NCBI GenBank assembly: GCA_964243375.1
Contig: CAXTEE010000005.1
Span: 51,006 to 115,005 of the forward strand
Source: an uncultured Acidobacteriaceae bacterium
GTDB taxonomy: Bacteria; Acidobacteriota; Terriglobia; Terriglobales; Acidobacteriaceae
DNA: 64,000 nucleotides
Direction: 5' to 3'
This document shows, one piece after another, positions 31,133 through 58,561 of the stretch (positions are counted from its first letter, which is position 1; each line of letters begins with the position of its first letter). The notes beneath the pieces are model-generated. The model did not search any database. It was not told where the DNA came from and worked only from the letters and a program-made list of their open reading frames with translations. A program made the position numbers and the translations under genes.

Positions 31133-31170
31133 GGAATCAGACGGGAATAAAGAAGTTCCTCCTGTGTTCT
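31133..31170 (+). promoter_or_regulatory. Two tandem ECF-type promoter motifs upstream of the Ser/Thr kinase
   Basis: GGAAT(31133)-N17-GTTCC and GGAAT(31144)-N17-GTTCT. Confidence 0.6.
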
Positions 31171-31233
31171 CCCTAGAGGAATCCGCGCCTGAAGCGCACG
31201 TAGCAGAACGAAGTCTCGAGATGGCGGACAGCT

Positions 31234-34047
31234 ATGACAACCCCAGAACAAATTGGACGATATCGCGTTACAGGCGAACTTGGCCGCGGCGGTATGGGAG
31301 TTGTGTATCGGGGCGAGGACCGTCTGATCGGCCGCGAAGTTGCCATCAAGACTCTGACTGAGGCAACTCCGGAGCTACGTGAGCGGTTCTTCATCGAGGC
31401 ACGATCGGGCATTCTAAGCCATCCCAATATAGTCACGGTCTACGAACTCGGCGAGCATGAGGGAAGCCCCTTCATCGCCATGGAGTTTGTAGGTGGAGAG
31501 TCGCTTGAGAAGCTTCTGCGCGCGCGCAGAAAGCTACCGTTGCTGGAGGCCCTTTCGATCATGGAGCAGCTGTGTTCCGGGCTCGGTCACGCCCATGGAC
31601 ATGGAGTCGTGCACCGAGATGTAAAGCCCGCGAACATCTTGATTCGCCCTGACGGTCGGGTGACCATTGTCGACTTCGGTATTGCGCGACTTGCGGATCA
31701 GACTCGGCAGCTCACAAAAACGGACGCACTGCTGGGGACCTTTCACTACATCGCTCCGGAACGCCTGAAGGGTGAGGCGAGTGATGGCCGGGGCGATGTC
31801 TGGTCGGCAGGCGTGATCCTCTATGAAATGCTGACGGGCGAGCTTCCGTTCAAGGGCGACGATGTTTCGTCGCTCTACCGGATGATCCACGAACCCTATG
31901 TCGCGTTGACCGAATACGTGCAAGACCTTCCGGAAGGTTTGAGCGCCGTGCTCGACAAGGCACTTGCGAAGCAAGTTGAGGATCGCTACCGAACAGCGGA
32001 AGAGGTTAGCTTCGATCTGCAGGTGATCGCTGAAGGACTGAAGCACGACCGAGTTAGCATTTTGATCGAGACAGCTCGCCGCCTCACGGAAGAGATGCAA
32101 TTTGCAAGTGCTCGGACGGTCCTGCTTCAGGCCCAGCGCATTGATCCGGGAAACGTTGATGCGAAATCACTTATCTATGACGTGCAGGAGCGCTTGAGCC
32201 GTCTGCAGCGCAGTGAACAGCTGCGTCAAATCGTGGAGCAGGCACACAATGCCCTTGGCGATCGCCGGTGGGATGATGCCATCCTGTTCTTTCAGCAAGC
32301 CGTCAAACTTGATGCCGACGATGATCATTCAGTGGACGAACGTCTCCTATACGCGCAGGAGCAAAAACGGCAACAGCAAAGGGTCGCATCCCTTTGCGAG
32401 CAGGCAAGCGAAGCGCGGAGTCGAGGTGACCTGACGCAGGCGCAGGAGTATCTGACGCAAGCTCTCAGGATCGATGGGCAGAACACCGATCTGCGAAATG
32501 CTCACTCCGTTATTCTGCGAGAAATTGAGCGCAGACAGAGGGGATTGCGGGTCGAAGAGCTTCTGCGAAGTGCTCGCGAGAGTTTCAGCGAGCAGCGGTA
32601 TACGGAGGCGATCGACCATCTGCGAAAGGCTGCCGACTTTGACCCCACTCAAACAGAGGTACAGCAGCTACTCTTCACGGTGGTCACACGGCAAAAAGAA
32701 GAACGCAGGCAGCAGCTGCTCGACAAGGTCGCAGCTGAGATCCAGGAGTGCCTTGCACGTGAGGATTTCGTTGTGGCGCAGGATCGCATTCTGAGAGCGC
32801 TCGAGACTCTGCCAGGCGAAGGCCTCTTACTGCGGCTCAAGGCCGAGGCGGAGTCGAAGAAGCGAGATTTCGATACCGAGCGAATCGTACGACAGGTCAT
32901 GTTCGAGGTGCAGGAGCTCTTTTCGGACGATCCGGCAGTTGCATTGAAAGCTGTCGAGCGAGGACTTCAGGACGCCCCCGAGAGCGAGGTATTGAAGCAG
33001 TCCAGGTCACGGCTTCAGGAGCATCTGAATCATCTCGAGATTGCCGCGGCGCGAGCAGACGCACTGGTTAAGGCGCATGCCGCAATCGAACAGCGAGAGT
33101 TTATTGAGGGAAGGCGCGTGCTTGAGCTTGTGCTCGGCGCACACGGGGCGAATGACGAACTAAGCCAACTTCTGGCTGTTGCGAGGGCCGGACAGGAGAA
33201 GCAAGAGCGCGAGGCGGCGCTCCTACGAAAGATGCAGGAGACGCACACCGCAATCGAGCACGCTGTTGCTTCCTTCAGCAAATCGCTCGCTGCCGGCGAC
33301 CTGAAACGCTGCATGCAGCCGCTTGAAGAGATCACAAGACGGCTTGGTGCAGAAGAGGGTGTAAAAGAGGCTGTTATTGGTTGCAAGGCTAAGAGAGGTG
33401 CCGCGGCGGAACAGCGCCTCGTAAGAGCAGTGGAAAGTGCTCGCAGACTGCTCACGCAGGGCGAGATCAAAGAAGCTTCAGTACAGCTGCGCCGCTCGGA
33501 GTTCGCCCTTCCCTTCGCGACTCCAGCTCTGAGTAGCGAGTACGACCGCACGAAGGCTGAGCTGGCGACGGCCATACATGCGAGGAAGAAAGATCGTCCG
33601 TCGCTATCTCTACTTAAGAAAGGACAACTAATACGTTACGCGGCTCTTGTCCTGACGCTCTGCATTGTGTTCGCAGCCGCCGCGCTTTTTCGATCACACC
33701 ATCATAGAACCCCAGCGCAAGTAACTCTTGTGCGCACACCCTCGCGTCAACCTGCGTCATTGCCAGTCGCTGTGCAGCGGACGGATATGGAGATCAACGC
33801 GACTCCCTGGGCAAGGGTGGTGCGTGTAGAAGGCGAAGGTGGCCAAGACGTTCCATTACCGAAAGAGCGTCCCGCTACGCCGCTACGATTGGACAACGTA
33901 GCGCTGGGCAAATACACTATCACTCTTTCCGATCCCAGTGGCGGTTCGCATACGACCGAGTGCCGCATATCGATGACCGATCATCTCTGCATAGCAGTTG
34001 TATACGCAATTGATCTGCGCCAATTGCTGACGGGAGATCGCCTGTGA
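31234..34047 (+). CDS. T6SS-associated Ser/Thr kinase (PpkA-like) with long helical region, TM and PEGA-like C-terminus
   Basis: GRGGMG, VAIK, HRDVKPAN, DFG, APE; TM near residue 810. Confidence 0.92.
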   Translation: MTTPEQIGRYRVTGELGRGGMGVVYRGEDRLIGREVAIKTLTEATPELRERFFIEARSGILSHPNIVTVYELGEHEGSPFIAMEFVGGESLEKLLRARRKLPLLEALSIMEQLCSGLGHAHGHGVVHRDVKPANILIRPDGRVTIVDFGIARLADQTRQLTKTDALLGTFHYIAPERLKGEASDGRGDVWSAGVILYEMLTGELPFKGDDVSSLYRMIHEPYVALTEYVQDLPEGLSAVLDKALAKQVEDRYRTAEEVSFDLQVIAEGLKHDRVSILIETARRLTEEMQFASARTVLLQAQRIDPGNVDAKSLIYDVQERLSRLQRSEQLRQIVEQAHNALGDRRWDDAILFFQQAVKLDADDDHSVDERLLYAQEQKRQQQRVASLCEQASEARSRGDLTQAQEYLTQALRIDGQNTDLRNAHSVILREIERRQRGLRVEELLRSARESFSEQRYTEAIDHLRKAADFDPTQTEVQQLLFTVVTRQKEERRQQLLDKVAAEIQECLAREDFVVAQDRILRALETLPGEGLLLRLKAEAESKKRDFDTERIVRQVMFEVQELFSDDPAVALKAVERGLQDAPESEVLKQSRSRLQEHLNHLEIAAARADALVKAHAAIEQREFIEGRRVLELVLGAHGANDELSQLLAVARAGQEKQEREAALLRKMQETHTAIEHAVASFSKSLAAGDLKRCMQPLEEITRRLGAEEGVKEAVIGCKAKRGAAAEQRLVRAVESARRLLTQGEIKEASVQLRRSEFALPFATPALSSEYDRTKAELATAIHARKKDRPSLSLLKKGQLIRYAALVLTLCIVFAAAALFRSHHHRTPAQVTLVRTPSRQPASLPVAVQRTDMEINATPWARVVRVEGEGGQDVPLPKERPATPLRLDNVALGKYTITLSDPSGGSHTTECRISMTDHLCIAVVYAIDLRQLLTGDRL

Positions 34048-35339
34048 GAGCCGTCGCTTGGCCCGTGCTCTTATTATTGATCGTGTCTGCCCCTGGTCCG
34101 ACGTACACCCCGGCTCCACGCGCCAGCCAAAGCGCTGACGATCTGCGCGATCTGGCAAACAAAGCAAAGGATACGGGAGACCTGCTAAGTTCAACGAGCT
34201 TCATCTGTCAAGCAGCTATCCGGGACGATAGGTACGCGAAGCGTTGCGAGAAGTCGAGGGTGGATCTGGAGAGGGCACTCGCTCAATATCAAGCCGATCT
34301 CAACATGGGTCGCACTGAAATCGAACGCAAGGATTATGGAGGAGCGATCCGCGACCTGAGCCGGATTACCTTCGGCCCCAACAAAGACGAGGCACTTGAA
34401 CTGCTGCAACAGGCCCGCGTAGGAAGCGGACAGATCTCGCCAGAAGCAGCTAGTCAGATGACCCTCGCTGCCGCGCAAGCGGCGTATGAAGCTGGCAACT
34501 TCGATCGTGCTGAAGCCCTGCTGAAGCGGGTACAGACACCTGGGGTCCGCTATGCAGCCAACCAGATTCTGACAAATATGTCGGTTTACCGAGACACCAT
34601 GAAGCAGGCAGACACTCTAGCGCACAATGGAGACTACAAGGATGCGGCAGCCAAGTACGGATTTGCTTCCGCGATCCAGCCGAAAGGTCCCGGTCAACCG
34701 CAACAGCGTCTGCGTGACGCACAGGATGCAGAGTTGAGGCTCGAATCCGCGAAAGAACAGCAGATGGCGAGTCAGCGACTCCAAGAGCAGCAAGCGGCTG
34801 CAACGAAAGTGAAGCTCGGAACATTGCAATCGCCGTTCCAGGCTCAAATGAATGACGCGTCTAAGATCAAGACATCCCTGGCGGTAGCGCAAAAGTTTGA
34901 ATCGGCAGGCCAGTTGAAGGCTGCGCTTGAGGCCTATGAAGCCGTCCTAAAGCTGGATGCACGCCAAAAGGTCGCCCTTACCGGAAAACAGCGCTTATCT
35001 GCCGTCGTAAAGACAGATCCACGAACGGTTGAACATCTCTTGATCCAAGGTGTCACCGACTTTTACGCCTCTCGCTTTCAACAGGCAAATAATGGCTTTC
35101 ACTCCTACCTTTCGGGAGGAGGAAAGCAGCACTGCGCCGCCGCTCACTTCTTCTTTGGGGCATCCCTCCTGTCGCAAGCCATGCTGGATGATCCAGCCGA
35201 CACCGATAACCTGAATAAGCTACGTCAGCAGGCGCAACAGGAATTTGTTGCGGCCAGGCAGCAACACTACCTTGCCCCTGAGACGTTCATCTCGCCGAAG
35301 ATTATGGCCGAATGGTCGAGAACAGGTGCTCAGCCATGA
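34044..35339 (+). CDS. Secreted TPR-like helical protein
   Basis: Signal peptide MRAVAWPVLLLLIVSA with no lipobox Cys; overlaps both neighbours by 4 nt. Confidence 0.8.
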   Translation: MRAVAWPVLLLLIVSAPGPTYTPAPRASQSADDLRDLANKAKDTGDLLSSTSFICQAAIRDDRYAKRCEKSRVDLERALAQYQADLNMGRTEIERKDYGGAIRDLSRITFGPNKDEALELLQQARVGSGQISPEAASQMTLAAAQAAYEAGNFDRAEALLKRVQTPGVRYAANQILTNMSVYRDTMKQADTLAHNGDYKDAAAKYGFASAIQPKGPGQPQQRLRDAQDAELRLESAKEQQMASQRLQEQQAAATKVKLGTLQSPFQAQMNDASKIKTSLAVAQKFESAGQLKAALEAYEAVLKLDARQKVALTGKQRLSAVVKTDPRTVEHLLIQGVTDFYASRFQQANNGFHSYLSGGGKQHCAAAHFFFGASLLSQAMLDDPADTDNLNKLRQQAQQEFVAARQQHYLAPETFISPKIMAEWSRTGAQP

Positions 35340-36091
35340 AGAGCAGCCCGAGTCTGCCGGAAAGCCATCCAGCCTTAAGGATTGGACTTAGACTAGAAGC
35401 CGCGGGGCTCTCCGATGTGGGCTGCAAACGCACAAACAATGAAGACAGCTTCGGGTATGACTTAGACTCGAACATCTTTATTGTTTGCGATGGGATGGGA
35501 GGGATGGCGGCTGGCGAGGTTGCGAGCGCCGTGGCGGTGGAGCAGGCTCTAAAAACGTATTGTGACTCCTGCCACACGTCCTCGGAGCCAGAGGCACGCC
35601 TCCACGCAGCAATCACCAGCGCAAACCGTTTTGTGTGGCATCTGGCGCAGAGCCGTCCGGAACTTTACGGCATGGGAACAACTCTGGTCGCGGCGTGTGT
35701 CCATGGCGACCAAGTCGTGATCGGCAACGTTGGTGACAGCCGAGCCTACTTTCTGCGTGATGGTGCTTGCGTGCAGATCACGAAAGATCATACCTACGTA
35801 GCAGAACAGGTCAGCGCGGTGGAACAATCCGTTTCGATCCAGCAATTCATTACACGTGCGATTGGAGCAGATTCGATGGTGGAGCCCGACTTCTTTGTGG
35901 CCGAAATCCGAACAGGCGACATTATTTTGCTCGCGACTGATGGACTTACACGGTATGTAAACGCAGACGTGATCACACATCATGAGCAGATGGCCCAAAC
36001 TCTCGAAGACCTATGCTGCGGTCTCCTCAATGTGGTCCAAGCTCAGGGAGCAGACGATAATCTGACCTGCGTTGCTGTGCGCATTCTGTAA
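35336..36091 (+). CDS. PP2C-family Ser/Thr phosphatase (PppA-like)
   Basis: VCDGMGG, NVGDSRAY, LATDGL, GADDNLT. Confidence 0.93.
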   Translation: MKSSPSLPESHPALRIGLRLEAAGLSDVGCKRTNNEDSFGYDLDSNIFIVCDGMGGMAAGEVASAVAVEQALKTYCDSCHTSSEPEARLHAAITSANRFVWHLAQSRPELYGMGTTLVAACVHGDQVVIGNVGDSRAYFLRDGACVQITKDHTYVAEQVSAVEQSVSIQQFITRAIGADSMVEPDFFVAEIRTGDIILLATDGLTRYVNADVITHHEQMAQTLEDLCCGLLNVVQAQGADDNLTCVAVRIL

Positions 36092-36181: not shown

Positions 36182-39100
36182 TCACTGCGCCACCTGTGCG
36201 ACGCAGTGAAGTCCGGCGAGCGAGCCAGGCACGAGGATACTCGCCGCGGGCCCGGAGATCTCGATTCGTTCGGTTAATGGCGTGCCGTTCACAATGATAG
36301 GTGTGCCTGAGATCTCTAGCGGATAAGCAAGGCGAACAGGCGTTGCAGTCTGTTCCACTCGGCCTCTATCCACAAGATGAAACAAAGACCAGTTTCCCGA
36401 GAATTGCAGTGGGAGGTTGTTACTTCCGTAGCTTGCAATTAATTGGGCCTGTTGTGCAGTCTGCGCCGACCAGGTGAACTGCGTGCTGACATCGCTGCCC
36501 GATAAGCGCTGTGCGTCAAGAGCAAGTGTTACGCCTTGAATGCCAGGCGATGGCGGGATATGCGCGGTAAAGTTCAGCGTCGGTGTAGCTGCTCCATTTG
36601 CAAAAAGAGCGTTGGACAGTGCTGCGGCGCGATTGAAGAACTCAATGAATTGCGAGGTCGGCTTCAGAACGGCGAGGGGAGAGGCCACCCAACGATCACC
36701 TTGCTGCACAAGCTGTGGTTTGAGGCTCGCTTCATAGAACTGCCACAGCAGTCCTGTGGCCGGCTTGAGCGCATTCGTGACTTCGGCCGGAGTTGCCTCA
36801 AGAGTCGCTTTCCGATCAAAGGGGAATTTGGCGAGGATCGGAGCTAAATTCGAGCAGAAAGCTCGACCCGCCAGATTGATCTGTTCCGGTGCTGCGCCGC
36901 GTATTGCATCCTCGACCGAAGTGATCGGCTCCTGCATGAGCTTTGTAAGGGTCTGTTCCACGTGTGCCTGAGTATTGATATCAAAGGCCTGAGCGGTTTG
37001 GCTCACAGCCGCATGAGCACTTATTGCCGCGGCAATCACGGGTTGAGCTGCTGATGGATTGTTCGGAGCGGAGACGTCTTGAGTAAATTGCGACACGGCT
37101 CCACTCAAACCGATCAAGCCGTTCACATAAACTGTGTTTCCAGAACCGATCAATCTATCCTTCACTGTTGGCGGCACAAGGGCCTGTGCGGGCTGGAACT
37201 CGTGTGCGACTAAGTCACCAGCTACTGCTGTATTGCTTGACGCGGTCGCAACAAGGGCCAGCAGAGCTGAGTTAGGTGAGGATAGGCTTTGCAGCTTCTG
37301 ATGAGCGTCAGCTAAGCTTCGGTATCGAACCACCGTGGCGGAACGCAGATATTGGAGCCATTGCTCCTTGAAGTCAGATAGGTAGCGGGCTCCGAGCTTC
37401 TGCCCAAGCGCCTGCCCCTGAGTTGATGCGGCAACCTGTTCTCCAAGCACCCAGGTTTCGCCAGTAAAATACTGGTCGGGATGCTCCACGGCTCGCTGTA
37501 CAAAGACAAATCCCGCCCGGCTAAATGCCCCCGGCACAACGTGCGACTCAATTACAGTCGCCACCGAGCCTGGAAACATGTGATTAAAATCTATCGCTGG
37601 CGAACCCTGTGAAGCTGCCGCAAGGATGTTCTGGTAAATGCGATCTAGACTCCCGAAGCTATTCAGGTAGCTGCGCGCACGAGTGATCGCAGTTAGGTCT
37701 GGACTCTGATCATAGAGCTGCGCGGCGCGGAGCTCTTCACCATAAAAGCGAAATTGCTGATCGGCTAGTTGGAGTTGCCTGTCACTTTCTGTGTGTTGGC
37801 CATTGAGCCAGAACTTCTCCAGCACAGGTGCAAGGAAAGCCGAAGTGCTGAATTGGTGATAAGACGTAGTGATCAGATAAGCGCGAAGCGGAGAGTAGAC
37901 CGCACGATAGTCGGCATCCGCAGGCGCAATAGCTGGCAGGCTGGTCAGAGCCCTTTGCATGTTCTCTTGTGTGCTTGCGAGCAGGAGCCAGTGAAATCGT
38001 TCTAAGTACAGTTGGCGTGCAGGACCGATCAGCGAGTCTCCATAATAGAGACCCCACCGAGACATTAGCGGAGCTCCGTCTCGATTAAACTGCTCAAGCT
38101 CGAGTAAGGCAAGCCGGAGTTGATCGAGCTCGCCCAGTTGAACACTTGAGGCAAGTGACACAGGAGCCGCAGTTGCTGGGAGAGAGGCGGCGGCGGCGCG
38201 GATCACGCCTTCCATGCGCGCATTGTTTCTGTACGAGATTGTGAGACAGATGCCCCAAGCGAGTAGAAGGGACGACGTTGCTATCAGCAGGCCCCGGCGC
38301 AGCAATGAAACACGTACGCTTGATGAATTCGTAAGCTTACGTTCCTGCTGCGCCAAAAAGACGTCTGGAAAGATCCTTGGCAGGAAGCACCATTGTGCGA
38401 TGCGGCGGCTGACACTCTGTGGGAGAGCGGTGGATGCCTCCGCGATCTCGATCTGCTGCAATGAAAGAATGCCTGTTGCCGCACCTTTGCTTAAAACGCG
38501 GCCCGGCACAGCGGCAGGAGCGCTGATAGCCTGCTCAATAATTTGCGCGCGAACTCCTACGCAGAACAAGCCGCGTAGAGAAGGATTAACGTTGAGGTGG
38601 CTTGGACGTGCGAGCTCAACGAGATAGCTAGCTAGATTACTCCGAAGCTTCTGCAGTTCACGCGGGAATTGATAGATGAGAGGTATGTGGTCGGATGCTG
38701 CTTCGCGGCCAAGAACCTCCAGCCTAAACTCTGTCAGCGAAAAAAAGAGCTTGTCCAGCGCTGAGGACAGAACGGCCGAGGCGTGCTCCGCGTAGACGCC
38801 CTGTGTGAGAATGCCGGAGGGAAGCAGCACACCGAGACGCTCGGAAGCCTCAGCGTTGTTGAGGTTGCGCGTGTATTCAGCAAAGCCGGGGACTCGATCC
38901 AGTTTTGTGAGCAGCACATGCACCGGAAGCTCCGCCCCGAGGTGATCTGCAATCTGGCGAAGCACAGCGTTAGTCTCTCGGCCAAGCGCCGCAGAAGCTT
39001 CAGCCGCATTCACTCCGAAGAACGATTCGCTGCTGACGCACACAACCGCGGCGCGCAACGGACGCGTTACGCCGAAGACAGATCGCAGAAGCTTTGGTCT

Positions 39101-39631
39101 GGTACGACGGACGAGGACGTTTGCGAGGCTTCTCCAATGCGGAGTCCCTGGCGCAAGCGCCTCCCCGGCATCAACGAGTAGCGCGCCTTGCGCATACCAG
39201 AGATTGACGACTCGGGTGGAGGCGATCACTTCGTCCTGATAGGCCTGCCCGGCAAGGAGCTCAGGATCAAGTCCTGATTTCAGGATCATCGTTGTTTTCG
39301 CGCTGTTTGACGATCCCAGAATATATAGCAGGGGGATTGTGTGAAGCGAAGGAGAAACACCCACACCGTGGGAGCCTGCGAGACGCTGCTCAGCCTCTCG
39401 CAACAGTGCGGTGAACTCTAAGCTCCTCGTTGCTGACCTTGAGGGGGAGCCGGATTCAGCGCGACGTGACCATAACCAATAGACAAAGAAAGCGGTCGCA
39501 GCACCGAGCAGAACAACGCCGATACGAAAGAGAAGAAGTGGCGTGCCCTGCAGATGGAGCGCGGGTGCGGCCAGCCAGATCAGCAGCGTGGAGAGCAGCA
39601 GAAAAAGTGCGGGGTATAAGTACAAAGCCAC
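36182..39631 (-). CDS. tssM: T6SS membrane complex TssM (ImcF)
   Basis: Two N-terminal TMs; ImcF-N (LYILGSSNSAKTT, LTKLDRVPGFAEY); third TM; C-terminal GNWSLFHL. Confidence 0.9.
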   Translation of the reverse strand: MALYLYPALFLLLSTLLIWLAAPALHLQGTPLLLFRIGVVLLGAATAFFVYWLWSRRAESGSPSRSATRSLEFTALLREAEQRLAGSHGVGVSPSLHTIPLLYILGSSNSAKTTMILKSGLDPELLAGQAYQDEVIASTRVVNLWYAQGALLVDAGEALAPGTPHWRSLANVLVRRTRPKLLRSVFGVTRPLRAAVVCVSSESFFGVNAAEASAALGRETNAVLRQIADHLGAELPVHVLLTKLDRVPGFAEYTRNLNNAEASERLGVLLPSGILTQGVYAEHASAVLSSALDKLFFSLTEFRLEVLGREAASDHIPLIYQFPRELQKLRSNLASYLVELARPSHLNVNPSLRGLFCVGVRAQIIEQAISAPAAVPGRVLSKGAATGILSLQQIEIAEASTALPQSVSRRIAQWCFLPRIFPDVFLAQQERKLTNSSSVRVSLLRRGLLIATSSLLLAWGICLTISYRNNARMEGVIRAAAASLPATAAPVSLASSVQLGELDQLRLALLELEQFNRDGAPLMSRWGLYYGDSLIGPARQLYLERFHWLLLASTQENMQRALTSLPAIAPADADYRAVYSPLRAYLITTSYHQFSTSAFLAPVLEKFWLNGQHTESDRQLQLADQQFRFYGEELRAAQLYDQSPDLTAITRARSYLNSFGSLDRIYQNILAAASQGSPAIDFNHMFPGSVATVIESHVVPGAFSRAGFVFVQRAVEHPDQYFTGETWVLGEQVAASTQGQALGQKLGARYLSDFKEQWLQYLRSATVVRYRSLADAHQKLQSLSSPNSALLALVATASSNTAVAGDLVAHEFQPAQALVPPTVKDRLIGSGNTVYVNGLIGLSGAVSQFTQDVSAPNNPSAAQPVIAAAISAHAAVSQTAQAFDINTQAHVEQTLTKLMQEPITSVEDAIRGAAPEQINLAGRAFCSNLAPILAKFPFDRKATLEATPAEVTNALKPATGLLWQFYEASLKPQLVQQGDRWVASPLAVLKPTSQFIEFFNRAAALSNALFANGAATPTLNFTAHIPPSPGIQGVTLALDAQRLSGSDVSTQFTWSAQTAQQAQLIASYGSNNLPLQFSGNWSLFHLVDRGRVEQTATPVRLAYPLEISGTPIIVNGTPLTERIEISGPAASILVPGSLAGLHCVAQVAQ

Positions 39632-49847: not shown

Positions 49848-51692
49848 ATGCGACAGCAACTTCTGGAATATTACGAACGCGAACTCGGCTATATGCGGCA
49901 GATGGGAGCCGAGTTCGGAAAGAAGTACCCGGCGGTGGCCGGTCGCCTTCTCCTCGAATCTGATCGTTGTTCGGATCCCCATGTCGAGCGATTGCTGGAG
50001 TCCTTCGCATTCCTGGCCGCGCGCATTCACCTCCGGCTCGACGACGATCTCCCCGAACTCACGCAAAGCATTCTGGATCTTGTCTATCCCGACTACCTAC
50101 GCCCTATCCCTTCAATGTCGATCGCTGAGTTCGCGCCGGGTGAGATGCGCGCTGAGGGAGGCAGCGCATTGAGCATACCTGCCGGAAGCGAGCTCACCGC
50201 GAAGCGGACAAAGGATGGCGTTGCATGTAAATTTCGTACCGGCTACCCGGTCGCCCTATGGCCGGTTGACCTGAAGGAGTGCGAGTGGAAACGTCCGGAA
50301 CAAATCACCAATCCTTTACGCGTCAGCGAAGCCTGTGCCGTTCTACGACTGGTTCTCAAGTGTGGACGCGACCTCTCGTTCGGAAAAATCGGTATAGACC
50401 GGCTCACCTTCTATCTTGCAGGGGAGGCCAGTGTCACGCTACCGCTTTATGAATTTCTCTCCCGCGATCTACTGCAGGTTCTTGTCCGCGATCCGCTTCG
50501 AAAGCAAGCGTCAGCGGTACCGCTTGCTTCAACCAAGCTGCGGCCCATGGGCTTTGCTCCCGAGGAGAGCCTCCTTCCCTACTCGCAGCGCTCGTTCCAG
50601 GGGTACCATCTGCTCCAGGAATACTTCTGCTTTCAGGAGAAGTTCCTCTTCTTTCAACTCGAAGGGCTGCAGGCTGCGGCTGAAGCTGCAAACATCTCCG
50701 GAGAGATGGAGCTTCTCTTCTACGTGTCGCAGTTCGAACAAACGGAACGCATGCAGACGCTTGAGCTAGGTGTTTCGACTGACACCCTTCGCCTGAACTG
50801 CACGCCCATTATCAACCTGTTTCAGACCACTGCAGAACCGGTTCTGGTCTCGCAGACGCGTCATGAGTACCCCGTAACTGTGAACGCGCGTAGTCGTGCG
50901 AGCGCTGAAATTTTCTCCATTGACTCGGTACTCGCGACCAATCCCTCCAGGCGCACCTCTGTCACGCTGCCACCACTCTTCGAGCGTCGTTTTTTGGTAG
51001 CTCCTGCACAATCCTCAGCGTTCTGGCGAGCAACCCGTAAGTATTCGCAGCTGGACAAAGGCCGCCCCAGCGACGTCTATCTTTCCGTCGTTGATGTGCA
51101 GGGGGCAATGGTTGAGCCAAACGCCGAGATTCTCACGGTGGGCTGCACCTGCACTAACCATGAACTCGCTTCAAAGCTCCCGTTCGGCGATGCCGACGGC
51201 GACTTCTATCTAGACGGCGGCTCTGGCGTGGGAAAGATTCAGGTTCTGCATCGCCCCACACCAACCTATCCCGCACCCGCTGGAGGTGAACAGGTGTGGA
51301 GTCTGATCTCACAACTATCTCTGAACCACCTGTCCGTTGGGGAAACTGGCCTTCCTGCACTGCGCGAGATCCTGCGCCTCCACAACTTCACCGCAGCTGC
51401 CCATCTGAATAAGCAGATCGACGGGCTTCTTTCCATGCAGGCTAGGAAGCATGTCGCGATTATGCAGAGTGAATTCGGAAGTGTCGCTGCGAGAGGCATG
51501 CTCGTCGATATGGAACTTGACGAGTCACATTTTCCAGGTGGCGGCGCATACCTATTTGGCGCCGTGCTCGATCAATTTCTTGGCCTATACGTCTCAATGA
51601 ACAGCTTTTCGCAGCTGAGAGTTCGCACCCCTGCGAGAAAGGAGGCATTAGGCTCATGGCAACCGAGAGCAGGCAGCCAAGCGCTGCTATAG
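49848..51692 (+). CDS. tssF: T6SS baseplate TssF
   Basis: LLEYYERELGY, DPHVERLLESFAFL, LNCTPIINLF. Confidence 0.96.
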   Translation: MRQQLLEYYERELGYMRQMGAEFGKKYPAVAGRLLLESDRCSDPHVERLLESFAFLAARIHLRLDDDLPELTQSILDLVYPDYLRPIPSMSIAEFAPGEMRAEGGSALSIPAGSELTAKRTKDGVACKFRTGYPVALWPVDLKECEWKRPEQITNPLRVSEACAVLRLVLKCGRDLSFGKIGIDRLTFYLAGEASVTLPLYEFLSRDLLQVLVRDPLRKQASAVPLASTKLRPMGFAPEESLLPYSQRSFQGYHLLQEYFCFQEKFLFFQLEGLQAAAEAANISGEMELLFYVSQFEQTERMQTLELGVSTDTLRLNCTPIINLFQTTAEPVLVSQTRHEYPVTVNARSRASAEIFSIDSVLATNPSRRTSVTLPPLFERRFLVAPAQSSAFWRATRKYSQLDKGRPSDVYLSVVDVQGAMVEPNAEILTVGCTCTNHELASKLPFGDADGDFYLDGGSGVGKIQVLHRPTPTYPAPAGGEQVWSLISQLSLNHLSVGETGLPALREILRLHNFTAAAHLNKQIDGLLSMQARKHVAIMQSEFGSVAARGMLVDMELDESHFPGGGAYLFGAVLDQFLGLYVSMNSFSQLRVRTPARKEALGSWQPRAGSQALL

Positions 51693-52723
51693 ACGAAGTA
51701 AGTGTTAACGCTATGCAGCAATCGCTACACGCACTGATGGAAGCCGAACCGCATAGCTTCCGCTTCTTTCAGATGGTCCGGCTACTGGAGAAGCTTCATC
51801 CTGACCGCCGCGCCGTGGGCATCTTCGTCTCGCCATCGGATGAAGTAGTGCGATTCACCGCGGCGCCGGCACTCACCTTTCCTCCAAGCGAAATCGGACC
51901 GTATCGGCCCGGTATCGATCGCCCGGCTTCTCTTGAAGTGAACTTCCTGGGGCTCAACGTGGTGAACGGTCCCATGCCACGTAGCTACACGGAAAGTCTT
52001 CTGGAACTGAAACGAGCCAAGGATCGCGCAACTCTGGAGTTCTTCGATCTCTTCAACCATCGCATAGTATCGCTGTTCTACCGTGCTTGGGCTCGCTATC
52101 GTTTCTATCTTGCCTACGAAAAATCAGGCGGAGGGGGCGACCATGAGATTACGGAGCGACTCTACGATCTCGTCGGCTTAGGCACGCCAGACCTGCGCAA
52201 CCGTATGGCTATTCCGGACGAAAGCGCGATCTACTACTCCGGTCTTCTCAGTAGAGACGTTCGGTCCGTTGAAGCTCTCCGGCAAATTCTGGAGAGCTAC
52301 TTCAGCGTACGCGTTGAGGTTCGGCAGTTCACGGGCTCGTGGGTTTCTCTGCCGCGGGAGCAGCGGACGGTGTTGAACGACAGCGCAATGCCGTCCGAGT
52401 GTCTCGGCATCGGAACGGTCATAGGCCACGAGGTGTGGGATCAGCAAGGCACCATGACGGTGCGGCTTGGTCCCATGCCTCTCGACCGGTATCGCGAATT
52501 TCTGCCTGGCTCCCGTGGTCAGGTAGAGCTCAGCGCGTGGCTCAACTTCTACTCGCGGCGAGTGTTCGATTTTGTTGTACAGCTCGTGCTCGAACGGACC
52601 CAAGTTCCGCATACGGCGCTCGAGACCGGTGAGGCCATGCACGGCCGTCTCGGCTATGAGAGCTGGTTAAAGACCAAACCCATGCGCCGCGATCCCGACG
52701 AAACAACCTACTTAGTCAGATAA
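51656..52723 (+). CDS. tssG: T6SS baseplate TssG
   Basis: FRFFQMVRLLE, FFDLFNHRIVSLFYRAW, VRLGPM. Confidence 0.95.
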   Translation: MATESRQPSAAIDEVSVNAMQQSLHALMEAEPHSFRFFQMVRLLEKLHPDRRAVGIFVSPSDEVVRFTAAPALTFPPSEIGPYRPGIDRPASLEVNFLGLNVVNGPMPRSYTESLLELKRAKDRATLEFFDLFNHRIVSLFYRAWARYRFYLAYEKSGGGGDHEITERLYDLVGLGTPDLRNRMAIPDESAIYYSGLLSRDVRSVEALRQILESYFSVRVEVRQFTGSWVSLPREQRTVLNDSAMPSECLGIGTVIGHEVWDQQGTMTVRLGPMPLDRYREFLPGSRGQVELSAWLNFYSRRVFDFVVQLVLERTQVPHTALETGEAMHGRLGYESWLKTKPMRRDPDETTYLVR

Positions 52724-52732
52724 GGACATCTT

Positions 52733-55393
52733 ATGGTCACAAACATCAAGTCACTCGTTTCCCGGTTCGATGATGGAACCAGACAGGCTATGGAGGGCGC
52801 GGCAGGCCTTTGTCTTTCAAGAACCCACTATGAAATTGAGATCGAGCATTTCCTCGTGAAGGCCTTCGAGCCAGAGAACACCGACCTGCCTTTAATTGCT
52901 CTGCACTTCGGAGTGAGCAGGGGGCATCTCGATTCGCAACTCAGGGCCGGTCTCGATCGCTTAAGATCTGGGAATACGCGTGGCCCCGTATTCAGCCCGG
53001 CGCTGGTGAAGATGTTTACCGAAGCCTGGTCACTTGGAAGCCTGAACTTTGGCGCGACCAACGTTCGTACGGGGCACGCGCTTTTGGCGTTGTTGAGTGA
53101 AGATGGTCTCGCGCGTATCCTTCGCGACTTGAGTCAGGAGCTTCGTAAGATCTCGCTCGAGGCACTTCTGCGGGAGTTCGATTCGATCACTGCCTCATCG
53201 ATCGAAGTGGAGACGTTTACTGGTTCTCACAGTTCGGGAAGGACATCGCCGGGAGTCACACCCTTCCTCGACCAGTACACCGTCGATCTGACGCACGCCG
53301 CGCGCGATGGCCGTATCGATGCGGTCGTCGGCCGCGACGCGGAGATTCGGCAGATGATCGACATCCTTATGCGTCGCCGACAGAACAATCCCATCCTCAC
53401 TGGCGAAGCAGGCGTGGGGAAGACAGCTGTTGTTGAAGGCCTGGCACAGCGCATCGCGGCAGGAGATGTACCGCAGGCGCTTGCATCTGTGCGCCTCCAC
53501 AGTCTCGATCTGGCCCTCCTGCAGGCGGGCGCCAGCGTAAAGGGCGAGTTTGAAAACAGATTGAAGGGCTTAGTTCAGGAGGTAAAAGCTTCCCCCGCTC
53601 CAATTATTCTCTTCATCGACGAAGCGCACGCGATGATCGGAGCAGGCGGGCAGCAGGGACAGGGCGACGCAGCGAACATCCTCAAGCCGGCACTCGCGCG
53701 CGGAGAACTTCGTACGATTGCGGCAACCACCTGGGCAGAGTACAAACGCTACTTCGAGAAGGATGCTGCACTGGTACGCCGATTCCAGGTCGTCAAGGTG
53801 GAGGAACCCTCCGAGCAGGTGTGCGAAGCCATGTTGCACGGCATCTTGCCCTCGCTGGAAAAACACCATCGCATCCGCATTCTGGATGAAGCAATTGGAG
53901 CTGCTGTCCGGCTTTCCCACCGCTATCTTCCTGGTCGCCAGCTTCCCGACAAAGCAGTAAGTGTTCTCGATACCGCATGCGCGCGGGTAGCGCTCAGTCA
54001 GCACACCCATCCCACGACCATGGTGTCCCTCACGCGCCGCATTGAGATGCTCGAGACCCATAAGCGCGTCTTGCTGCGTGAACTAGCGACGGGAGCGCAG
54101 CATGCCGAGCGTATTGCGGAAGGTGACGAACAAATTCGACTCGCCACGGAGGATTTGGAACGGCTTCGCGAACGATGGGCTAAAGAAGGAGAGCTCGTTC
54201 GCAGGATAGAAGCGCTCTATGTCGTTCTCGAGGACGGGCAGGCATCCGGGGGAGAGGAGCGCGCCGAGGCTCTTACCGAGCTAAGTGACTTACGTGCACG
54301 TTTGCGCGACTCTCAATCGCAGATCCCGCTCACCCACCTTGCTGTCGACGCACAGGTCGTCGCCTCCGTTGTCTCGGAGTGGACCGGAATCCCTCTCGGC
54401 AAGATGATGGACGACGAGATCGTCAAGGTCTTGAACTTGGAAGCGGAGCTCAAAAATCGAATCATAGGTCAGGACCACGCGCTCGCAGCCATCGCTCAAC
54501 GCGTTTGGACATCGCGAGCCAACATGGATGATCCCGGAAAGCCCATCGGCGTGTTCATGTTGGTTGGGCCCAGTGGCGTCGGTAAAACGGAGACCGCGCT
54601 TGCGCTCGCGGATCTCCTCTATGGAGGCGAGCACAACATGGTGACGATAAACATGTCTGAGTTTCAGGAGCCGCACTCCGTCTCCACACTGAAAGGCGCG
54701 CCACCGGGATATGTGGGCTACGGCGAAGGAGGCGTACTCACCGAAGCCGTGCGCCGCCAGCCATATTCTGTCATCCTTCTGGACGAAGTCGAAAAGGCTC
54801 ATCCAGACGTGCTCGAGTTGTTCTTCCAGGTCTTCGACAAAGGCCAGATAGAAGATGGCGAGGGTCGCTCGATCGACTTCCGCAACACGCTCATCCTGCT
54901 AACGACGAACGCGGCAAGCGACCTCATCTCCAAGTTGTCGGCCGATGCAGAAACAACGCCTCTTCCCGCCAACATGGCCGCCGCGATTCGGCCCGAGCTC
55001 AACCGCGTTTTCAGGCCTGCATTTCTGGGCCGCACGCTGGTCGTGCCCTACTACCCGGTTCACGATGAGGTTTTGAAGCGGATCATCCGTCTCAAGCTCA
55101 GTAAGATCGAGCGACGACTCCTTGAGAACCACCGCGTGCGACTTGCATATGGGGACGACCTCGTCGAATTGGTTCGGCAGCGCTGCACCGAAGTCGAGAG
55201 TGGCGCGCGCAACGTCGACCATTTGCTCTCGAATACGCTCTTGCCTGAAATGGCGCGCGGTCTGCTGGCGCGTATGGCCGACGAAGAATCTATCGAGAGT
55301 GTCGCCGTCAGCGTATCGGCCGCGGGTGACCTCACCTACGCTTGGTCCGCCTCCAAGCATGATGAGGTCCCCGCCGCCTACATCTTGGCGTAG
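52733..55393 (+). CDS. tssH: T6SS AAA+ ATPase ClpV (TssH)
   Basis: GEAGVGKT and GPSGVGKT Walker A motifs; ClpV N-terminus; CTEVESGARNVD. Confidence 0.96.
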   Translation: MVTNIKSLVSRFDDGTRQAMEGAAGLCLSRTHYEIEIEHFLVKAFEPENTDLPLIALHFGVSRGHLDSQLRAGLDRLRSGNTRGPVFSPALVKMFTEAWSLGSLNFGATNVRTGHALLALLSEDGLARILRDLSQELRKISLEALLREFDSITASSIEVETFTGSHSSGRTSPGVTPFLDQYTVDLTHAARDGRIDAVVGRDAEIRQMIDILMRRRQNNPILTGEAGVGKTAVVEGLAQRIAAGDVPQALASVRLHSLDLALLQAGASVKGEFENRLKGLVQEVKASPAPIILFIDEAHAMIGAGGQQGQGDAANILKPALARGELRTIAATTWAEYKRYFEKDAALVRRFQVVKVEEPSEQVCEAMLHGILPSLEKHHRIRILDEAIGAAVRLSHRYLPGRQLPDKAVSVLDTACARVALSQHTHPTTMVSLTRRIEMLETHKRVLLRELATGAQHAERIAEGDEQIRLATEDLERLRERWAKEGELVRRIEALYVVLEDGQASGGEERAEALTELSDLRARLRDSQSQIPLTHLAVDAQVVASVVSEWTGIPLGKMMDDEIVKVLNLEAELKNRIIGQDHALAAIAQRVWTSRANMDDPGKPIGVFMLVGPSGVGKTETALALADLLYGGEHNMVTINMSEFQEPHSVSTLKGAPPGYVGYGEGGVLTEAVRRQPYSVILLDEVEKAHPDVLELFFQVFDKGQIEDGEGRSIDFRNTLILLTTNAASDLISKLSADAETTPLPANMAAAIRPELNRVFRPAFLGRTLVVPYYPVHDEVLKRIIRLKLSKIERRLLENHRVRLAYGDDLVELVRQRCTEVESGARNVDHLLSNTLLPEMARGLLARMADEESIESVAVSVSAAGDLTYAWSASKHDEVPAAYILA

Positions 55394-55413
55394 CAAGGAA
55401 AGGTTCGTGCGGT

Positions 55414-57348
55414 GTGCCCGGCTATACACAAACAAATCGCATTTTGCGGCTCAACAGCTCCCTAGGAGCGAACACACTGCTTCCCATGGGTTTCAGCGGC
55501 AGCGAGGCCCTCTCGGAACTCTTCGAGTATAGTGTCGACCTCCTGACAGAATCCTACGTTGTCATCGCACCCTCCGCGATCGTTGGCAAACGGGTGACCG
55601 TCGAACTTCAGGTAACAGACACCGGAACGAAGCGGTACTTCAATGGCATGGTTGCGAGTATCGAAGGCAATGGGGGAAGCACGCTCTTCAACAGCTATCG
55701 CCTGCGTATGGTCCCAATGTTGTGGCTGCTCTCACTCAACCAGCAGACGCGCGTCTTTCAGGACATGTCCGTGCTTGATATCACACGCAAGGTATTGGCG
55801 CCGTATAGCATCACCCCCAAAGTCGAAACGCACACAACCTACCAGATCTTGCAGTACTGCACGCAGTATCGCGAAACCGATCTTGAGTTCGTCCTGCGTA
55901 TCTTGGAGCAGCACGGCATCTTCTTCTACTTCACACATAGTGCCTCCGACCACGTGCTCGTCCTCTCGGATGCAAGCACCCTTTGTGGAGAGTGCTCTGT
56001 GGTCAGCGAATTCGACTTCTTCGTGGAAAGGGAGCGGCAGCTTAGCTTCTATAAGCCCATCATCCTCGGCTTCCGGTCGCGTTCCACGCTCATTCCGGGT
56101 GAGCACACGGCTTGGGACTACCGCTTCATGCGTTACGACGTGTCGCACGCAAATCCGCAGACCTTGCATTCTACCGCCGAGATGGGTGAGAACAGCCACG
56201 AAATGTATGACTTTAGCGACTCAGCAGCAGCGTTCTTCAAGACCGAAGCAGCTGAATACAGGACGCCCCTGCAGCAAACGCTAATGCAAAGAGTGAACCG
56301 CGACGCTATCGATGCGCAGGCCGTCGTCTGCTCTGGTGAATCCACCGCCAGCACCATGCAGGCCGGGTTCAGCTTCAAGCTTCGGAAGTACCCACAGACC
56401 GAAAAGAATATTAAGTACCTCCTCACGCGAGTCACGCACTCTGTGCAACAACAGCCGGGCTACCAGGCCGAGATTACTTTGCCGGATGATGACCCTTACA
56501 CAAACACGTTTGAGGCCCAACCCTTTTCTCACATCTACCGCAAGGCGAGAACCATGGTTAAGCCACGTGTCTACGGCGTTGTCACCGGCAAGGTAGTCAC
56601 CTCTCCGGGAGATGACTCGCATCTCGATCGCTTCGGCAGGGTCTGCGTGCAGTTCTGGTGGGATCGCCATCGTCCCCCGCAAACACCTGACAAGACCCTC
56701 CTCCGCGTCGCTCAGCAATGGGCCGGGAAGGGGTGGGGAACGTACTTCTGGCCTCGCGTCGGGGACGAAGTGCTCATCGATTTTATCGAGGGCGATCCCG
56801 ACGCTCCTGTCGTCGTCGGCTCACTCTACAACGGCGTCAACATGCCGAAGTATGATCCAAAGTCCGAGTACACCCGCTCAGGCATTCTGACGCGATCCTC
56901 TCGAAGAGGAACGGAGGAGAATGCCAATGAACTTCGCTTTGAAGATCTGCGAGGGGCGGAACAAATCTTCGTAAAAGCGGAGCACGACATCGACGAGCGC
57001 ATCAAGCACGACTCGAGACGCTGGGTGGGCAACCAGGACTCACTTGTCGTCATAGGAGACCAGCTGGAAAGGGTGGAAGGAAGCCAGTACGCAACGGTCC
57101 TGGGAAACATCCTGCAGAAGGTGGACGGCTCTTCTTCCTCGATCGTTGCTGACCAAATCATTGTGCAGTCCGGAACGCAGATAACGCTGCAAGTAGATTC
57201 TTCCTTTATTCAGCTAAGTCCTGCTGGGGTGGTGATCTCAGGGCCGCTGGTTCGGATTAATAGTGGAGGAACCCCCGGGATGAGCCCAGGAATACCAAGG
57301 AATCCGGATGTAGCCGACGACGGCACCAAGGGAGGCAAGTTGTCGTAA
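55414..57348 (+). CDS. vgrG: T6SS spike VgrG (TssI), no C-terminal effector extension
   Basis: YCTQYRETDLEF, WPRVGDEVLIDFIEGDPD, NELRFED. Confidence 0.95.
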   Translation: MPGYTQTNRILRLNSSLGANTLLPMGFSGSEALSELFEYSVDLLTESYVVIAPSAIVGKRVTVELQVTDTGTKRYFNGMVASIEGNGGSTLFNSYRLRMVPMLWLLSLNQQTRVFQDMSVLDITRKVLAPYSITPKVETHTTYQILQYCTQYRETDLEFVLRILEQHGIFFYFTHSASDHVLVLSDASTLCGECSVVSEFDFFVERERQLSFYKPIILGFRSRSTLIPGEHTAWDYRFMRYDVSHANPQTLHSTAEMGENSHEMYDFSDSAAAFFKTEAAEYRTPLQQTLMQRVNRDAIDAQAVVCSGESTASTMQAGFSFKLRKYPQTEKNIKYLLTRVTHSVQQQPGYQAEITLPDDDPYTNTFEAQPFSHIYRKARTMVKPRVYGVVTGKVVTSPGDDSHLDRFGRVCVQFWWDRHRPPQTPDKTLLRVAQQWAGKGWGTYFWPRVGDEVLIDFIEGDPDAPVVVGSLYNGVNMPKYDPKSEYTRSGILTRSSRRGTEENANELRFEDLRGAEQIFVKAEHDIDERIKHDSRRWVGNQDSLVVIGDQLERVEGSQYATVLGNILQKVDGSSSSIVADQIIVQSGTQITLQVDSSFIQLSPAGVVISGPLVRINSGGTPGMSPGIPRNPDVADDGTKGGKLS

Positions 57349-57413
57349 TGTCTGACCTGCGATCTCGAGAAACTGACCACCCTCAGAAAAAGATAGTTGA
57401 AGGAGAGACACCA

Positions 57414-57803
57414 ATGCCGCTTCAAACATGCTTAGGTGCAACGCTGCGCTGCAGCTTCGGAGTCGCACCCAGCGAACTGATGGTGCTGCCTGTAAACCGG
57501 GTCATCACCAACGACCGGCCGGATGCCAACATCGGCGATCATGTGCCTCTTATCAACATTCTCCCATTTGGAATGTGTATCTCTGAGGCAAACCCAGCCG
57601 TGATAGCTGCCACCATCGCGGCGCTGGGCGTTCCAACCCCGGCACCCTGCATTCCGGCAACACCTTCCCCTTGGATTCCTGGATCCGTCAACGTCCTTCT
57701 CGGCAACCAACCGAGCTTGAGCAGTGATTCGAAGCTGATGTGCTTGTGGGCTGGCGTAATCACCATAGTCCAGCCTGGTGAGGAGACAGTGCTAATTAGC
57801 TAG
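57414..57803 (+). CDS. DUF4280 PAAR-like spike tip protein
   Basis: ATLRCSFG, NILPFGMC, PAPCIP, LMCLWAGVITI; AAGGAG RBS. Confidence 0.9.
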   Translation: MPLQTCLGATLRCSFGVAPSELMVLPVNRVITNDRPDANIGDHVPLINILPFGMCISEANPAVIAATIAALGVPTPAPCIPATPSPWIPGSVNVLLGNQPSLSSDSKLMCLWAGVITIVQPGEETVLIS

Positions 57804-57985
57804 AACAGGTCAGTTCGGAACATCTTGGCCGACACAGTCAGAACCAACGCGAAGACCGTCGAGGACCAGGGTTCGATGCGGACAAGAGGGTGCATTGTAA
57901 CGTCGCGATTTCGGCAGCATTGGTGGGCTTTTAGAGCACGTCGCAAGTCGTTGCAAGAACTTCGAAACATTGAAAATAAAGGAGT

Positions 57986-58561
57986 ATGTCTACTCCCCAG
58001 GTATCAATCGCATCTTCGGCATTTGGAAGTGAGCATATCGACAGCTTGTATCGCTACGCGCTCGTGTTGACCCGCAATCAGTCCGATGCGGAGGATCTGG
58101 TACAGGAAACGTATGTACGAGCAATCGAGGCATTCAATCGACTGCGTGAGGACAGCAACGTGAAGGCATGGCTTTTCACAATTCTGCGGAATCTTTGGCT
58201 CAACGCACTTCGAAAGCGTCGAAGTGGGCCAAAGCTGGTGGAAGAGGATGGGGAGAACCGTACTCTTGATGATCTCGTAGGAACAATGCCGGATGCCTAC
58301 AAACTTCTTGAAGACGAGGAAGACGCCAGTCGTGTTCGATCAGCTATCAGCAAGCTTCCTTCAGACTTCCAGACGATCCTCATCCTGAGGGAGTTTGAGG
58401 AGCTTAGTTATCAGGAGATAGCCACGGTTCTCAGTTGCCCGGCAGGCACCGTCATGTCGCGTTTGGGAAGGGCACGGGCGAAGCTCCGAATCCTGTTGAC
58501 AGAGGGGGGGAGCAAGCCTCTACAGTCGGGAAGAATGGACCAGCATGAGCAGCTGCGATGA
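57986..58561 (+). CDS. ECF sigma-70 factor (SigR/SigH-like)
   Basis: DAEDLVQETY, VKAWLFTILRN, LSYQEIA..CPAGTVMSRLGRAR; AAGGAG RBS. Confidence 0.95.
   Translation: MSTPQVSIASSAFGSEHIDSLYRYALVLTRNQSDAEDLVQETYVRAIEAFNRLREDSNVKAWLFTILRNLWLNALRKRRSGPKLVEEDGENRTLDDLVGTMPDAYKLLEDEEDASRVRSAISKLPSDFQTILILREFEELSYQEIATVLSCPAGTVMSRLGRARAKLRILLTEGGSKPLQSGRMDQHEQLR

Follow-up and report, generated by a model that had tools for sequence, protein, structure and literature searches.

The closest described parallel to the locus reported here is Xanthomonas citri's type VI secretion system (T6SS), which is controlled by the extracytoplasmic function (ECF) sigma factor EcfK and the kinase PknS, of group ECF43 (Bayer-Santos et al. 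2018, as cited in PMC8999054; PMC13147305). EcfK operates without an anti-sigma factor, has the DxxD of region 2.2 replaced (QATE/QTTA; in ECF43, uncharged residues that include a phospho-acceptor Thr) and is activated by direct phosphorylation (PMC13147305). A literature search found no other ECF-controlled T6SS. Here we describe a T6SS cluster in a 64,000-nucleotide stretch of DNA (the window) from an uncultured Acidobacteriaceae bacterium (assembly GCA_964243375.1, contig CAXTEE010000005.1, positions 51,006 to 115,005). Promoter-like copies of one motif lie between its transcription units, and an ECF sigma gene (57986..58561, plus strand) lies at its end. Comparison of sequences across genomes makes it likely that the cluster belongs to the regulon of this adjacent, SigH/SigR-like sigma factor, read at these promoters.

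As with EcfK/PknS, an ECF sigma gene sits inside a T6SS cluster, here as the predicted activator, and a Hanks-type serine/threonine kinase is encoded in the same cluster. Unlike EcfK, the sigma factor keeps DAEDLVQE, has a cognate zinc-binding anti-sigma (ZAS) factor and is nearest to SigH/SigR. Whereas in ECF43 a Hanks-type kinase gene adjoins the sigma gene, the kinase gene here lies 24 kb away (3.5 kb in Edaphobacter aggregans) and is predicted to be among the sigma factor's own targets. A kinase-activated sigma factor of the ECF43 type was considered and discarded, since the protein keeps DxxD and its gene overlaps one for a ZAS anti-sigma factor (criteria of PMC13147305). Mycobacterium tuberculosis SigH is itself phosphorylated by PknB (PMC13147305), which makes cross-talk between the putatively co-regulated kinase/PP2C pair and this sigma factor a reasonable idea.

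The nearest characterised relatives are the Streptomyces SigR/RsrA and mycobacterial SigH/RshA pairs (ECF12), with which the locus shares the HxxxCxxC anti-sigma motif and the GGAAT and GTT boxes. The regulons of SigR and SigH typically comprise thiol-redox genes. The predicted targets here are a secretion machine and a kinase/phosphatase operon. Identity to ECF12 is about 40%, and the NCBIfam model SigH_actino (TIGR02947) scores the sigma factor at 118 bits, under its cutoff of 251.55. The spacer between the boxes is mostly 17 nt, whereas actinobacterial homologues have N18, and in place of a small soluble thiol sensor there is an anti-sigma factor anchored in the membrane, whose outer domain of about 210 residues carries CxxCH. 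In its mode of action, with identical boxes and the same type of ZAS control, the sigma factor would resemble SigR/SigH, but it is not a member of that group by score, anti-sigma architecture, spacer or predicted targets.

A further comparison concerns two places where transcription units diverge. The bidirectional promoters that Warman and colleagues reportedly described in Nature Microbiology in 2021 arise from symmetry within the housekeeping -10 element, with start sites said to lie about 18 bp apart. As in those promoters, one short symmetric segment is predicted here to serve divergent transcription of two neighbours. The difference is one of extent: here a 31-bp palindrome mirrors the entire ECF promoter, -35 as well as -10, and the predicted start sites are about 32-34 bp apart.

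A shared motif and its independent definition

Five transcription units are involved: an operon for a Ser/Thr kinase, a 431-residue protein and a PP2C phosphatase (the kinase operon), the tssK1LM operon, the gene of a 323-residue protein, tssK2, and an operon running from tssB to PAAR. The earlier note on this DNA had placed one motif before all five, at six sites, and each of the six is present: GGAAT-N17-GTTCC at 31133 (+), GGAAT-N17-GTTCT at 31144 (+), GAAAT-N17-GTTTA at 41764 (+), GGAAT-N18-GTTAT at 41794 (-), GGAAT-N17-GTTTA at 44298 (+) and GGAAT-N17-GTCTA at 44328 (-). The claim stands for the kinase operon, tssK1LM, tssB and tssK2; the site before the 323-residue protein gene is weak, and the 31133 match is not conserved. 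Four sites are solid, namely 31144(+), 41794(-), 44298(+) and 44328(-), and the promoter of the 323-residue protein gene is the least certain of the set. The predicted promoter of the kinase operon (31144..31168, plus strand; GGAATAAAGAAGTTCCTCCTGTGTT) has its -35 GGAAT at 31144-31148 and its -10 GTT at 31166-31168, and the kinase ATG at 31234 lies about 60 nt past the expected start site.

Plain counts of the motif say little. Across the whole window, GGAAT-N17-GTY is not enriched (4 matches against 3.26 expected), and across the 4.46-Mb genome GGAAT-N17-GTT occurs 71 times, against 49-70 at other spacings (15-19), again without enrichment. All four of the window's GGAAT-N17-GTY matches lie in T6SS intergenic DNA that totals about 700 bp. 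At the genome-wide rate of this pattern, 137 per 8.9 M positions or about 1.5e-5 per site, about 0.02 matches would be expected there, so the earlier estimate of about 0.04 was about right. These four exact matches represent two independent places, one palindrome and one overlapping pair. Enrichment counts were replaced by independently trained matrices and phylogenetic footprinting.

The motif can be defined without reference to the T6SS. Homologues of the sigma factor (54-61% identity) occur in the TssB-less genomes G011, G029, G021, G018 and G002 (G000 denotes the window's own genome, other G numbers are Acidobacteriaceae relatives and L numbers are extracted loci). The motif lies directly upstream of the sigma gene in G021 (GGGAATAGATCTCGCAACCGCGTGTTTA) and G018 (GGGAATAAATTCTATGGTGCCGTGTTTA), and GAAAT-N17-GTTAT lies directly upstream of a more distant homologue in a Blastocatellia metagenome-assembled genome. 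A matrix built solely from these three sigma-upstream sites was scanned against both strands of the whole genome (8.9 M positions). It placed the tssB site at 44298 first, with 23.7 bits against 21.0 for the runner-up; 44328 ranked 12th, 31144(+) 13th and 41794(-) 143rd. With the full matrix, 44298 again ranked first, 41794(-) second and 31144(+) sixth. The top ranks from the independent matrix remove the objection that the motif was defined post hoc, as far as the strongest sites are concerned. The 31133 match is not among the listed top matches of either genome-wide scan.

Exact GGAAT-N17-GTT is also enriched many-fold around other acidobacterial homologues, with six matches in 20 kb in E. 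aggregans and three to four in each of four further loci. Once aligned, the homologue-flanking sites share GGGAATA(A/G)A and (C)GTGTT(T), that is, GGGAATAAA..CGTGTT, beyond the pattern used in the search; the extended consensus is gGGAATAaA-N13-cGTGTTt, equivalent to GGAAT-N17-GTT. In most of the actinobacterial loci retrieved for homologues, a coding-strand GGAAT-N18-GTT stands 180-400 nt upstream of the match. This is a positive control, indicating that the cognate promoter can be read from the autoregulatory site, and it bears out the SigR/SigH specificity (GGAAY-N~18-GTT) that the earlier note had quoted. The usual spacer in the acidobacterial set is 17 nt, with 18 at 41794 and at the kinase promoters of G352 and G347.

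Some further matches and variants are recorded here as observations. A short-spacer form, GGAAT-N15-GTTTT(G/A), recurs before the ECF homologues of G011 (L021, 7540-7580) and G029 (L022, 7580-7620), and on the 323-residue-protein side of the tssK1 palindrome in G352 and G347 (L114, 17860-17889; L115, 1892-1921). Outside the window, other high-scoring and apparently intergenic matches lie at C2:608658(-), C39:1374(+) and C4:166978(-). Downstream of them are, in that order, genes for a GH5 cellulase-like lipoprotein (397 residues), a 188-residue protein and a 341-residue Peptidase_C58 (YopT-like) protein, which may be further regulon members or T6SS cargo. No thioredoxin gene was seen behind the top genome-wide matrix matches, the set that was inspected.

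Conservation across genera

Among 301 family genomes searched, closer homologues of the sigma factor were found in two other genera, G352 (73%) and G347 (65%). The T6SS cluster is the same in each: vgrG is directly followed by the sigma and anti-sigma genes, and the opposite end carries an operon for the kinase, a 431-aa-like protein and PP2C. In these orthologous acidobacterial loci, motif and sigma synteny are kept together. TssC of G000 and G352 is 88% identical, and VgrG of G000 and G347 58%.

When the three intergenic regions are aligned across genera, the motif blocks are the only conserved sequence in any of them. The tssK2/tssB block reads GGGAATAGACAC-N9-GTGTTTATTCC, and that between tssK1 and the 323-residue protein gene reads GGAATAACC.C.C..CG.TTTATTCC. 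The kinase-operon blocks, in which 31144 aligns with G352, G347 and E. aggregans, read GGAATAAA..G(T/C)GTT. The overlapping GGAAT-N17-GTT match at 31133..31157 (plus strand) has no counterpart in any orthologous kinase promoter of the same alignment and is probably a chance or auxiliary match rather than a functional one.

The 31-bp tssK2/tssB palindrome, with one mismatch allowed, occurs in 3 of 401 family genomes, exactly G000, G347 and G352 and once in each; a control pattern gave no matches in the same 401 genomes. Scanning metagenomes added a fourth copy, on a contig where it likewise separates tssK from tssB. No two of the four share the same 9-nt spacer, but their arms are identical down to a G/A asymmetry, through which the box facing tssB is GTT and the one facing tssK2 is GTC.

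The T6SS loci of the genus relatives G032, G035 and G001 (TssB 67-70% identical) have no such motif upstream of tssB. This at first seemed to refute the proposed link and was resolved because those three genomes lack the sigma factor. TssC identity of 88% across genera, set against TssB identity of 67-70% within the genus, points to horizontal transfer of the ECF-linked T6SS island inside the family Acidobacteriaceae, probably with the cluster moving as a single island.

Overlapping divergent promoters

Two of the intergenic regions contain inverted repeats. At 44298..44328 lies the 31-bp palindrome GGAATAGACAC-TCGCCACCC-GTGTTTATTCC, whose plus strand gives GGAAT-N17-GTTTA, the predicted tssB promoter, and whose minus strand gives GGAAT-N17-GTCTA, the predicted tssK2 promoter. 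Each of the two predicted start sites would fall within the other promoter's -35. At 41764..41794 lies the 31-bp quasi-palindrome GAAATAACCCCCCACCTTAACGGTTTATTCC, with the minus-strand GGAAT-N18-GTTAT directed toward tssK1LM and the plus-strand GAAAT-N17-GTTTA toward the 323-residue protein gene. G352 and G347 keep this second block as a 30-bp palindrome, with N17 toward tssK1 and N15 toward the homologue of the 323-residue protein gene.

The 'two promoters' at each palindrome are therefore one sequence read on both strands, and this raises the best surviving alternative: that the palindromes are operators of a symmetric dimeric transcription factor, the likeness to GGAAT-N17-GTT being a by-product of its half-site. 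The geometry suits such a factor, since both window sites are 31-bp inverted repeats in which 8-10 of 11 arm positions match and both arms are conserved in orthologues. Symmetry has another possible source in the promoter itself. In the consensus, the -35 (GGAATAAAC) is nearly the reverse complement of the -10 region (GTTTATTCC), and a strong site could on that account be read both ways. Palindromes are found mainly where two units diverge, and the one-way sites at 31144, at the G352 kinase operon and at the G021 and G018 sigma genes are not palindromic. Together with the asymmetry kept in all four tssK2/tssB instances, this points to two directional promoters rather than one symmetric operator. 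A model of directional promoters accounts for all of the sites. A palindrome before the L038 homologue, along with the palindromic G347 kinase site, keeps the operator alternative alive at a low level. The sites lie 45-90 nt from start codons, a promoter-like distance, and the motif fits the known specificity of the sigma factor's nearest relatives. The sigma and anti-sigma genes are the only ones common to all motif-bearing loci, with or without a T6SS, and apart from the ECF sigma, Pfam and NCBIfam revealed no DNA-binding regulator in the cluster. On balance we consider an operator quite improbable.

The sigma factor and its anti-sigma factor

The sigma gene lies just past the last T6SS gene (PAAR ends at 57803), as the earlier note had it. 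Its 191-residue product matches Pfam Sigma70_r2 (E 2e-18) and Sigma70_r4_2 (E 8e-16) and scores 107 bits against a cutoff of 42.9 with the NCBIfam model sigma70-ECF; by these scores it is an ECF (group IV) sigma-70 factor. The claimed resemblance to the SigR/SigH group also held. Among solved relatives, M. tuberculosis SigH is closest (E 1e-25); AlgU, SigE and Streptomyces coelicolor SigR come after it, and beyond the Acidobacteriota actinobacterial SigH/SigR proteins are next in line. A GTDB scan with the clade alignment returned Acidobacteriaceae and Blastocatellia relatives at 50-62% identity and then a long actinobacterial SigH/SigR tier at about 40%. The canonical DAEDLVQE is invariant in seven of seven aligned clade members, across which regions 2.4 and 4.2 are nearly invariant.

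The anti-sigma gene (58545..59519, plus strand; Pfam zf-HC2) overlaps the sigma gene and encodes a membrane-anchored ZAS protein of 324 residues. Its N-terminus, with HFEQCASC, is RsrA-like at 43 bits, under the NCBIfam cutoff of 62.5. One transmembrane segment (about residues 92-113) leads to an outer domain of about 210 residues that ends in a CxxCH (CATCH; C266, C269, H270; nt 59340-59354). H30/C34/C37 and C266/C269/H270 are invariant in seven aligned anti-sigma homologues, whether T6SS-linked or T6SS-less. The CxxCH could serve to attach haem c or to sense redox state, and the two invariant motifs together suggest a haem- or redox-type input.

G352 has a second sigma copy (L030/L032, G352:C5:177555-178076), 71% identical, with an in-frame TGA and no T6SS nearby. 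It resembles the T6SS-linked copy in its upstream region and is probably a decaying duplicate. In G000 itself, about a dozen ECF paralogues are encoded; the paralogue comparison found no second sigma of this clade in the genome, and the next paralogue is 35.6% identical.

That dozen opens a second alternative, in which the sites are ECF promoters of another ECF sigma and the adjacent one serves the TPR and FG-GAP/ASPIC genes downstream of it or something else. Besides the number of candidates, the lack of a proximal motif copy at the adjacent sigma gene and the varied neighbours of sigma homologues elsewhere (ApbE, oxidoreductase genes) would fit. A distant paralogue, however, would have to read a motif that stands upstream of this clade's own genes in other genomes. 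The near-invariance of regions 2.4 and 4.2, the sigma factor's place directly after vgrG, conserved together with the motif, and the lack of the motif at T6SS loci without this sigma all count against another reader. We give this alternative little chance.

A third, highly improbable alternative, that the matches are chance or non-functional conserved sequence and that unrecognised housekeeping or sigma-54 promoters drive the T6SS, can appeal to the post hoc definition of the motif, to the missing genome-wide enrichment of GGAAT-N17-GTT and to a poorly known acidobacterial housekeeping consensus, which makes the negative sigma-70 scan weak evidence, but it is countered by the first place in the genome that the independently trained matrix gives the tssB site, by motif blocks being all that three intergenic regions conserve between genera, and by a palindrome confined to exactly the 3 of 401 genomes with the synteny, the control pattern giving none.

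Regulon and proposed circuit

The earlier note had proposed that the adjacent sigma is the cluster's dedicated activator. That it reads the sites and activates the cluster is supported by evidence independent of the post hoc motif, namely the homologue matrix, the synteny and the relatives without the sigma. 'Dedicated' did not survive, as the clade exists without a T6SS and the sigma factor would also control the kinase/PP2C operon. The clearest case is E. aggregans DSM 19364 (L034, NZ_JQKI01000036.1, 9534-18874), which has the sigma (62%) and anti-sigma genes and, about 3.5 kb downstream of the sigma gene, an orthologous operon for the kinase (62%), a 431-aa-like protein (42%) and PP2C (53%). 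This operon is preceded by CGGAATAAATCGGCGCGTACTGTGTTTCA, the same promoter. No TssC was found in E. aggregans (8.2-Mb genome) or in three other homologue-bearing genomes, in a search that had no positive control of its own; TssB is independently absent from G018, G021 and G029. The pairing of sigma and kinase operon without a T6SS in E. aggregans suggests that sigma, anti-sigma and kinase operon form an older module, whose regulon the T6SS joined in some lineages.

From the sites, their conservation, the synteny and the sigma factor's relatives with their autoregulatory motifs, we infer a circuit of initiation at the sites, an input signal, mutual exclusion and feedback. In the resting state, the sigma factor would be held by the membrane-anchored zinc-binding anti-sigma factor with its conserved outer CxxCH, and an envelope or redox signal would free it. 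Sigma-RNA polymerase would then start at gGGAATAaA-N13-cGTGTTt (GGAAT-N17/18-GTT). The kinase/PP2C operon, tssK1LM, tssK2 and the tssB-to-PAAR operon would be transcribed from such promoters, and probably the 323-residue protein gene as well. In the divergent pairs, reverse-complementing the -35 of one predicted promoter gives the stretch immediately past the other's -10, so that one 31-bp palindrome would serve both directions, with one polymerase at a time. Read-through from the tssB promoter into the sigma gene would provide positive feedback.

The read-through step concerns the 182-nt gap between PAAR and the sigma gene (57804..57985), which showed neither an intrinsic terminator on the plus strand nor a stable structure or sigma-70-like promoter. 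In G352 and G347 the sigma gene follows vgrG by 103 and 172 nt, and there too the gap has no terminator, sigma-70-like promoter or motif. With no terminator after PAAR and no proximal promoter of its own type, the sigma gene appears reachable by read-through from the tssB promoter. A candidate autoregulatory promoter just past the PAAR stop, GGAAC-N15-GTC at 57817-57839, was rejected: it has no counterpart upstream of the G352 and G347 sigma genes and is probably a chance match. Nor was a sigma-70-like promoter detected in the three T6SS intergenic regions, which is weak evidence because the acidobacterial housekeeping consensus is poorly known.

Several points weigh against placing the cluster in the regulon of the adjacent sigma factor. 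ECF sigma genes are usually autoregulated, and here no proximal motif copy precedes the sigma gene, GGAAC-N15-GTC at 57817 being the only approximation. The E. aggregans sigma gene (L034) likewise has no motif within about 260 nt, the nearest match lying about 430 nt upstream, and none was found directly upstream of the homologues L024, L019, L028, L029 and L039. Spacers range from 15 to 18, and the G011 and G029 homologues have GGAAT-N15-GTTTTG directly upstream. The 41764(+) site is weak, ranking 45th with the full matrix and 1015th with the independent one, and its orthologues in G352 and G347 read GGAAT-N15-GTTTT. The G347 kinase promoter is palindromic though no divergent gene is seen. 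The instances in G000, G352 and G347 may share one transferred island and so are not fully independent. Finally, the support comes from sequence comparison, and the promoters and start sites are predicted ones.

A tentative extension, which we regard as possible but doubtful, is that a conserved sigma/anti-sigma/kinase-PP2C module, its membrane ZAS anti-sigma factor bearing a haem-type CxxCH outside, captured a complete T6SS in a few lineages by way of promoters whose -35 and -10 regions mirror each other as reverse complements, that the mutually exclusive palindromes set the ratio of baseplate/membrane-complex to sheath/tube components, and that the sigma gene, ending a 13.5-kb operon, closes a positive feedback loop.

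Gene content of the cluster

Pfam bore out the gene map of the earlier note. The kinase operon (31234..36091, plus strand) encodes a Ser/Thr kinase with TPR repeats (937 residues), a secreted helical protein of 431 residues and the PP2C phosphatase, in overlapping open reading frames. It is followed on the minus strand by the tssM-tssL-tssK1 operon (36182..41684; Pfam IcmF, DotU, VasE). The largest operon, tssB-tssC-hcp-tagJ(ImpE)-tssA-tssE-tssF-tssG-clpV-vgrG-PAAR(DUF4280), occupies 44418..57803 on the plus strand, with intergenic gaps of at most 42 nt and the true tssB ATG at 44418. The T6SS parts recognised by Pfam are thus TssA, B, C, Hcp, E, F, G, ClpV, VgrG, K (two copies), L, M, PAAR and TagJ/ImpE; neither a TssJ lipoprotein nor an FHA (TagH/Fha) protein was recognised among the cluster's genes.

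The second TssK paralogue, tssK2, is transcribed alone (42824..44227, minus strand; Pfam VasE, E 4e-131). The two paralogues (40320-41684; 42824-44227) each have their own predicted ECF promoter. Between them lies the gene of the tail-anchored 323-residue protein (41843..42814, plus strand), identified from its translation. It carries five G-x-FT-x-[IL]-[FL] repeats and has no match in Pfam or NCBIfam. The T-x-x-hydrophobic spacing in these repeats could mark phospho-acceptor sites for the cluster's kinase, for which no FHA partner was recognised. The 431- and 323-residue proteins were also considered as regulators and rejected, as neither has a DNA-binding domain in Pfam or NCBIfam.

On the same strand after the anti-sigma gene, 59623-62570 encodes a TPR protein and then an FG-GAP/ASPIC (UnbV) protein, before which no motif was seen. 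These two genes are absent after the sigma homologues of G352, G347, G011 and G029; in the last two, ApbE and oxidoreductase genes follow instead.

Implications

A literature search found no work on T6SS regulation in Acidobacteria. If the proposed circuit is true, the locus would add to Xanthomonas EcfK/PknS a second ECF sigma devoted largely to a T6SS, working by a different mechanism. The comparison also defines a probable cognate promoter for an uncharacterised SigH/SigR-like ECF clade of the Acidobacteriota, which could be used for regulon prediction and as an orthogonal expression part, and it offers a predicted case from nature in which one palindrome contains two back-to-back ECF promoters that overlap completely. 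The link between the sigma factor and the kinase/PP2C operon, conserved even without a T6SS, suggests layered transcriptional and phosphorylation control. For these abundant soil bacteria, the locus provides a concrete, testable circuit: a sigma/anti-sigma pair and a defined, predicted promoter before every T6SS unit.

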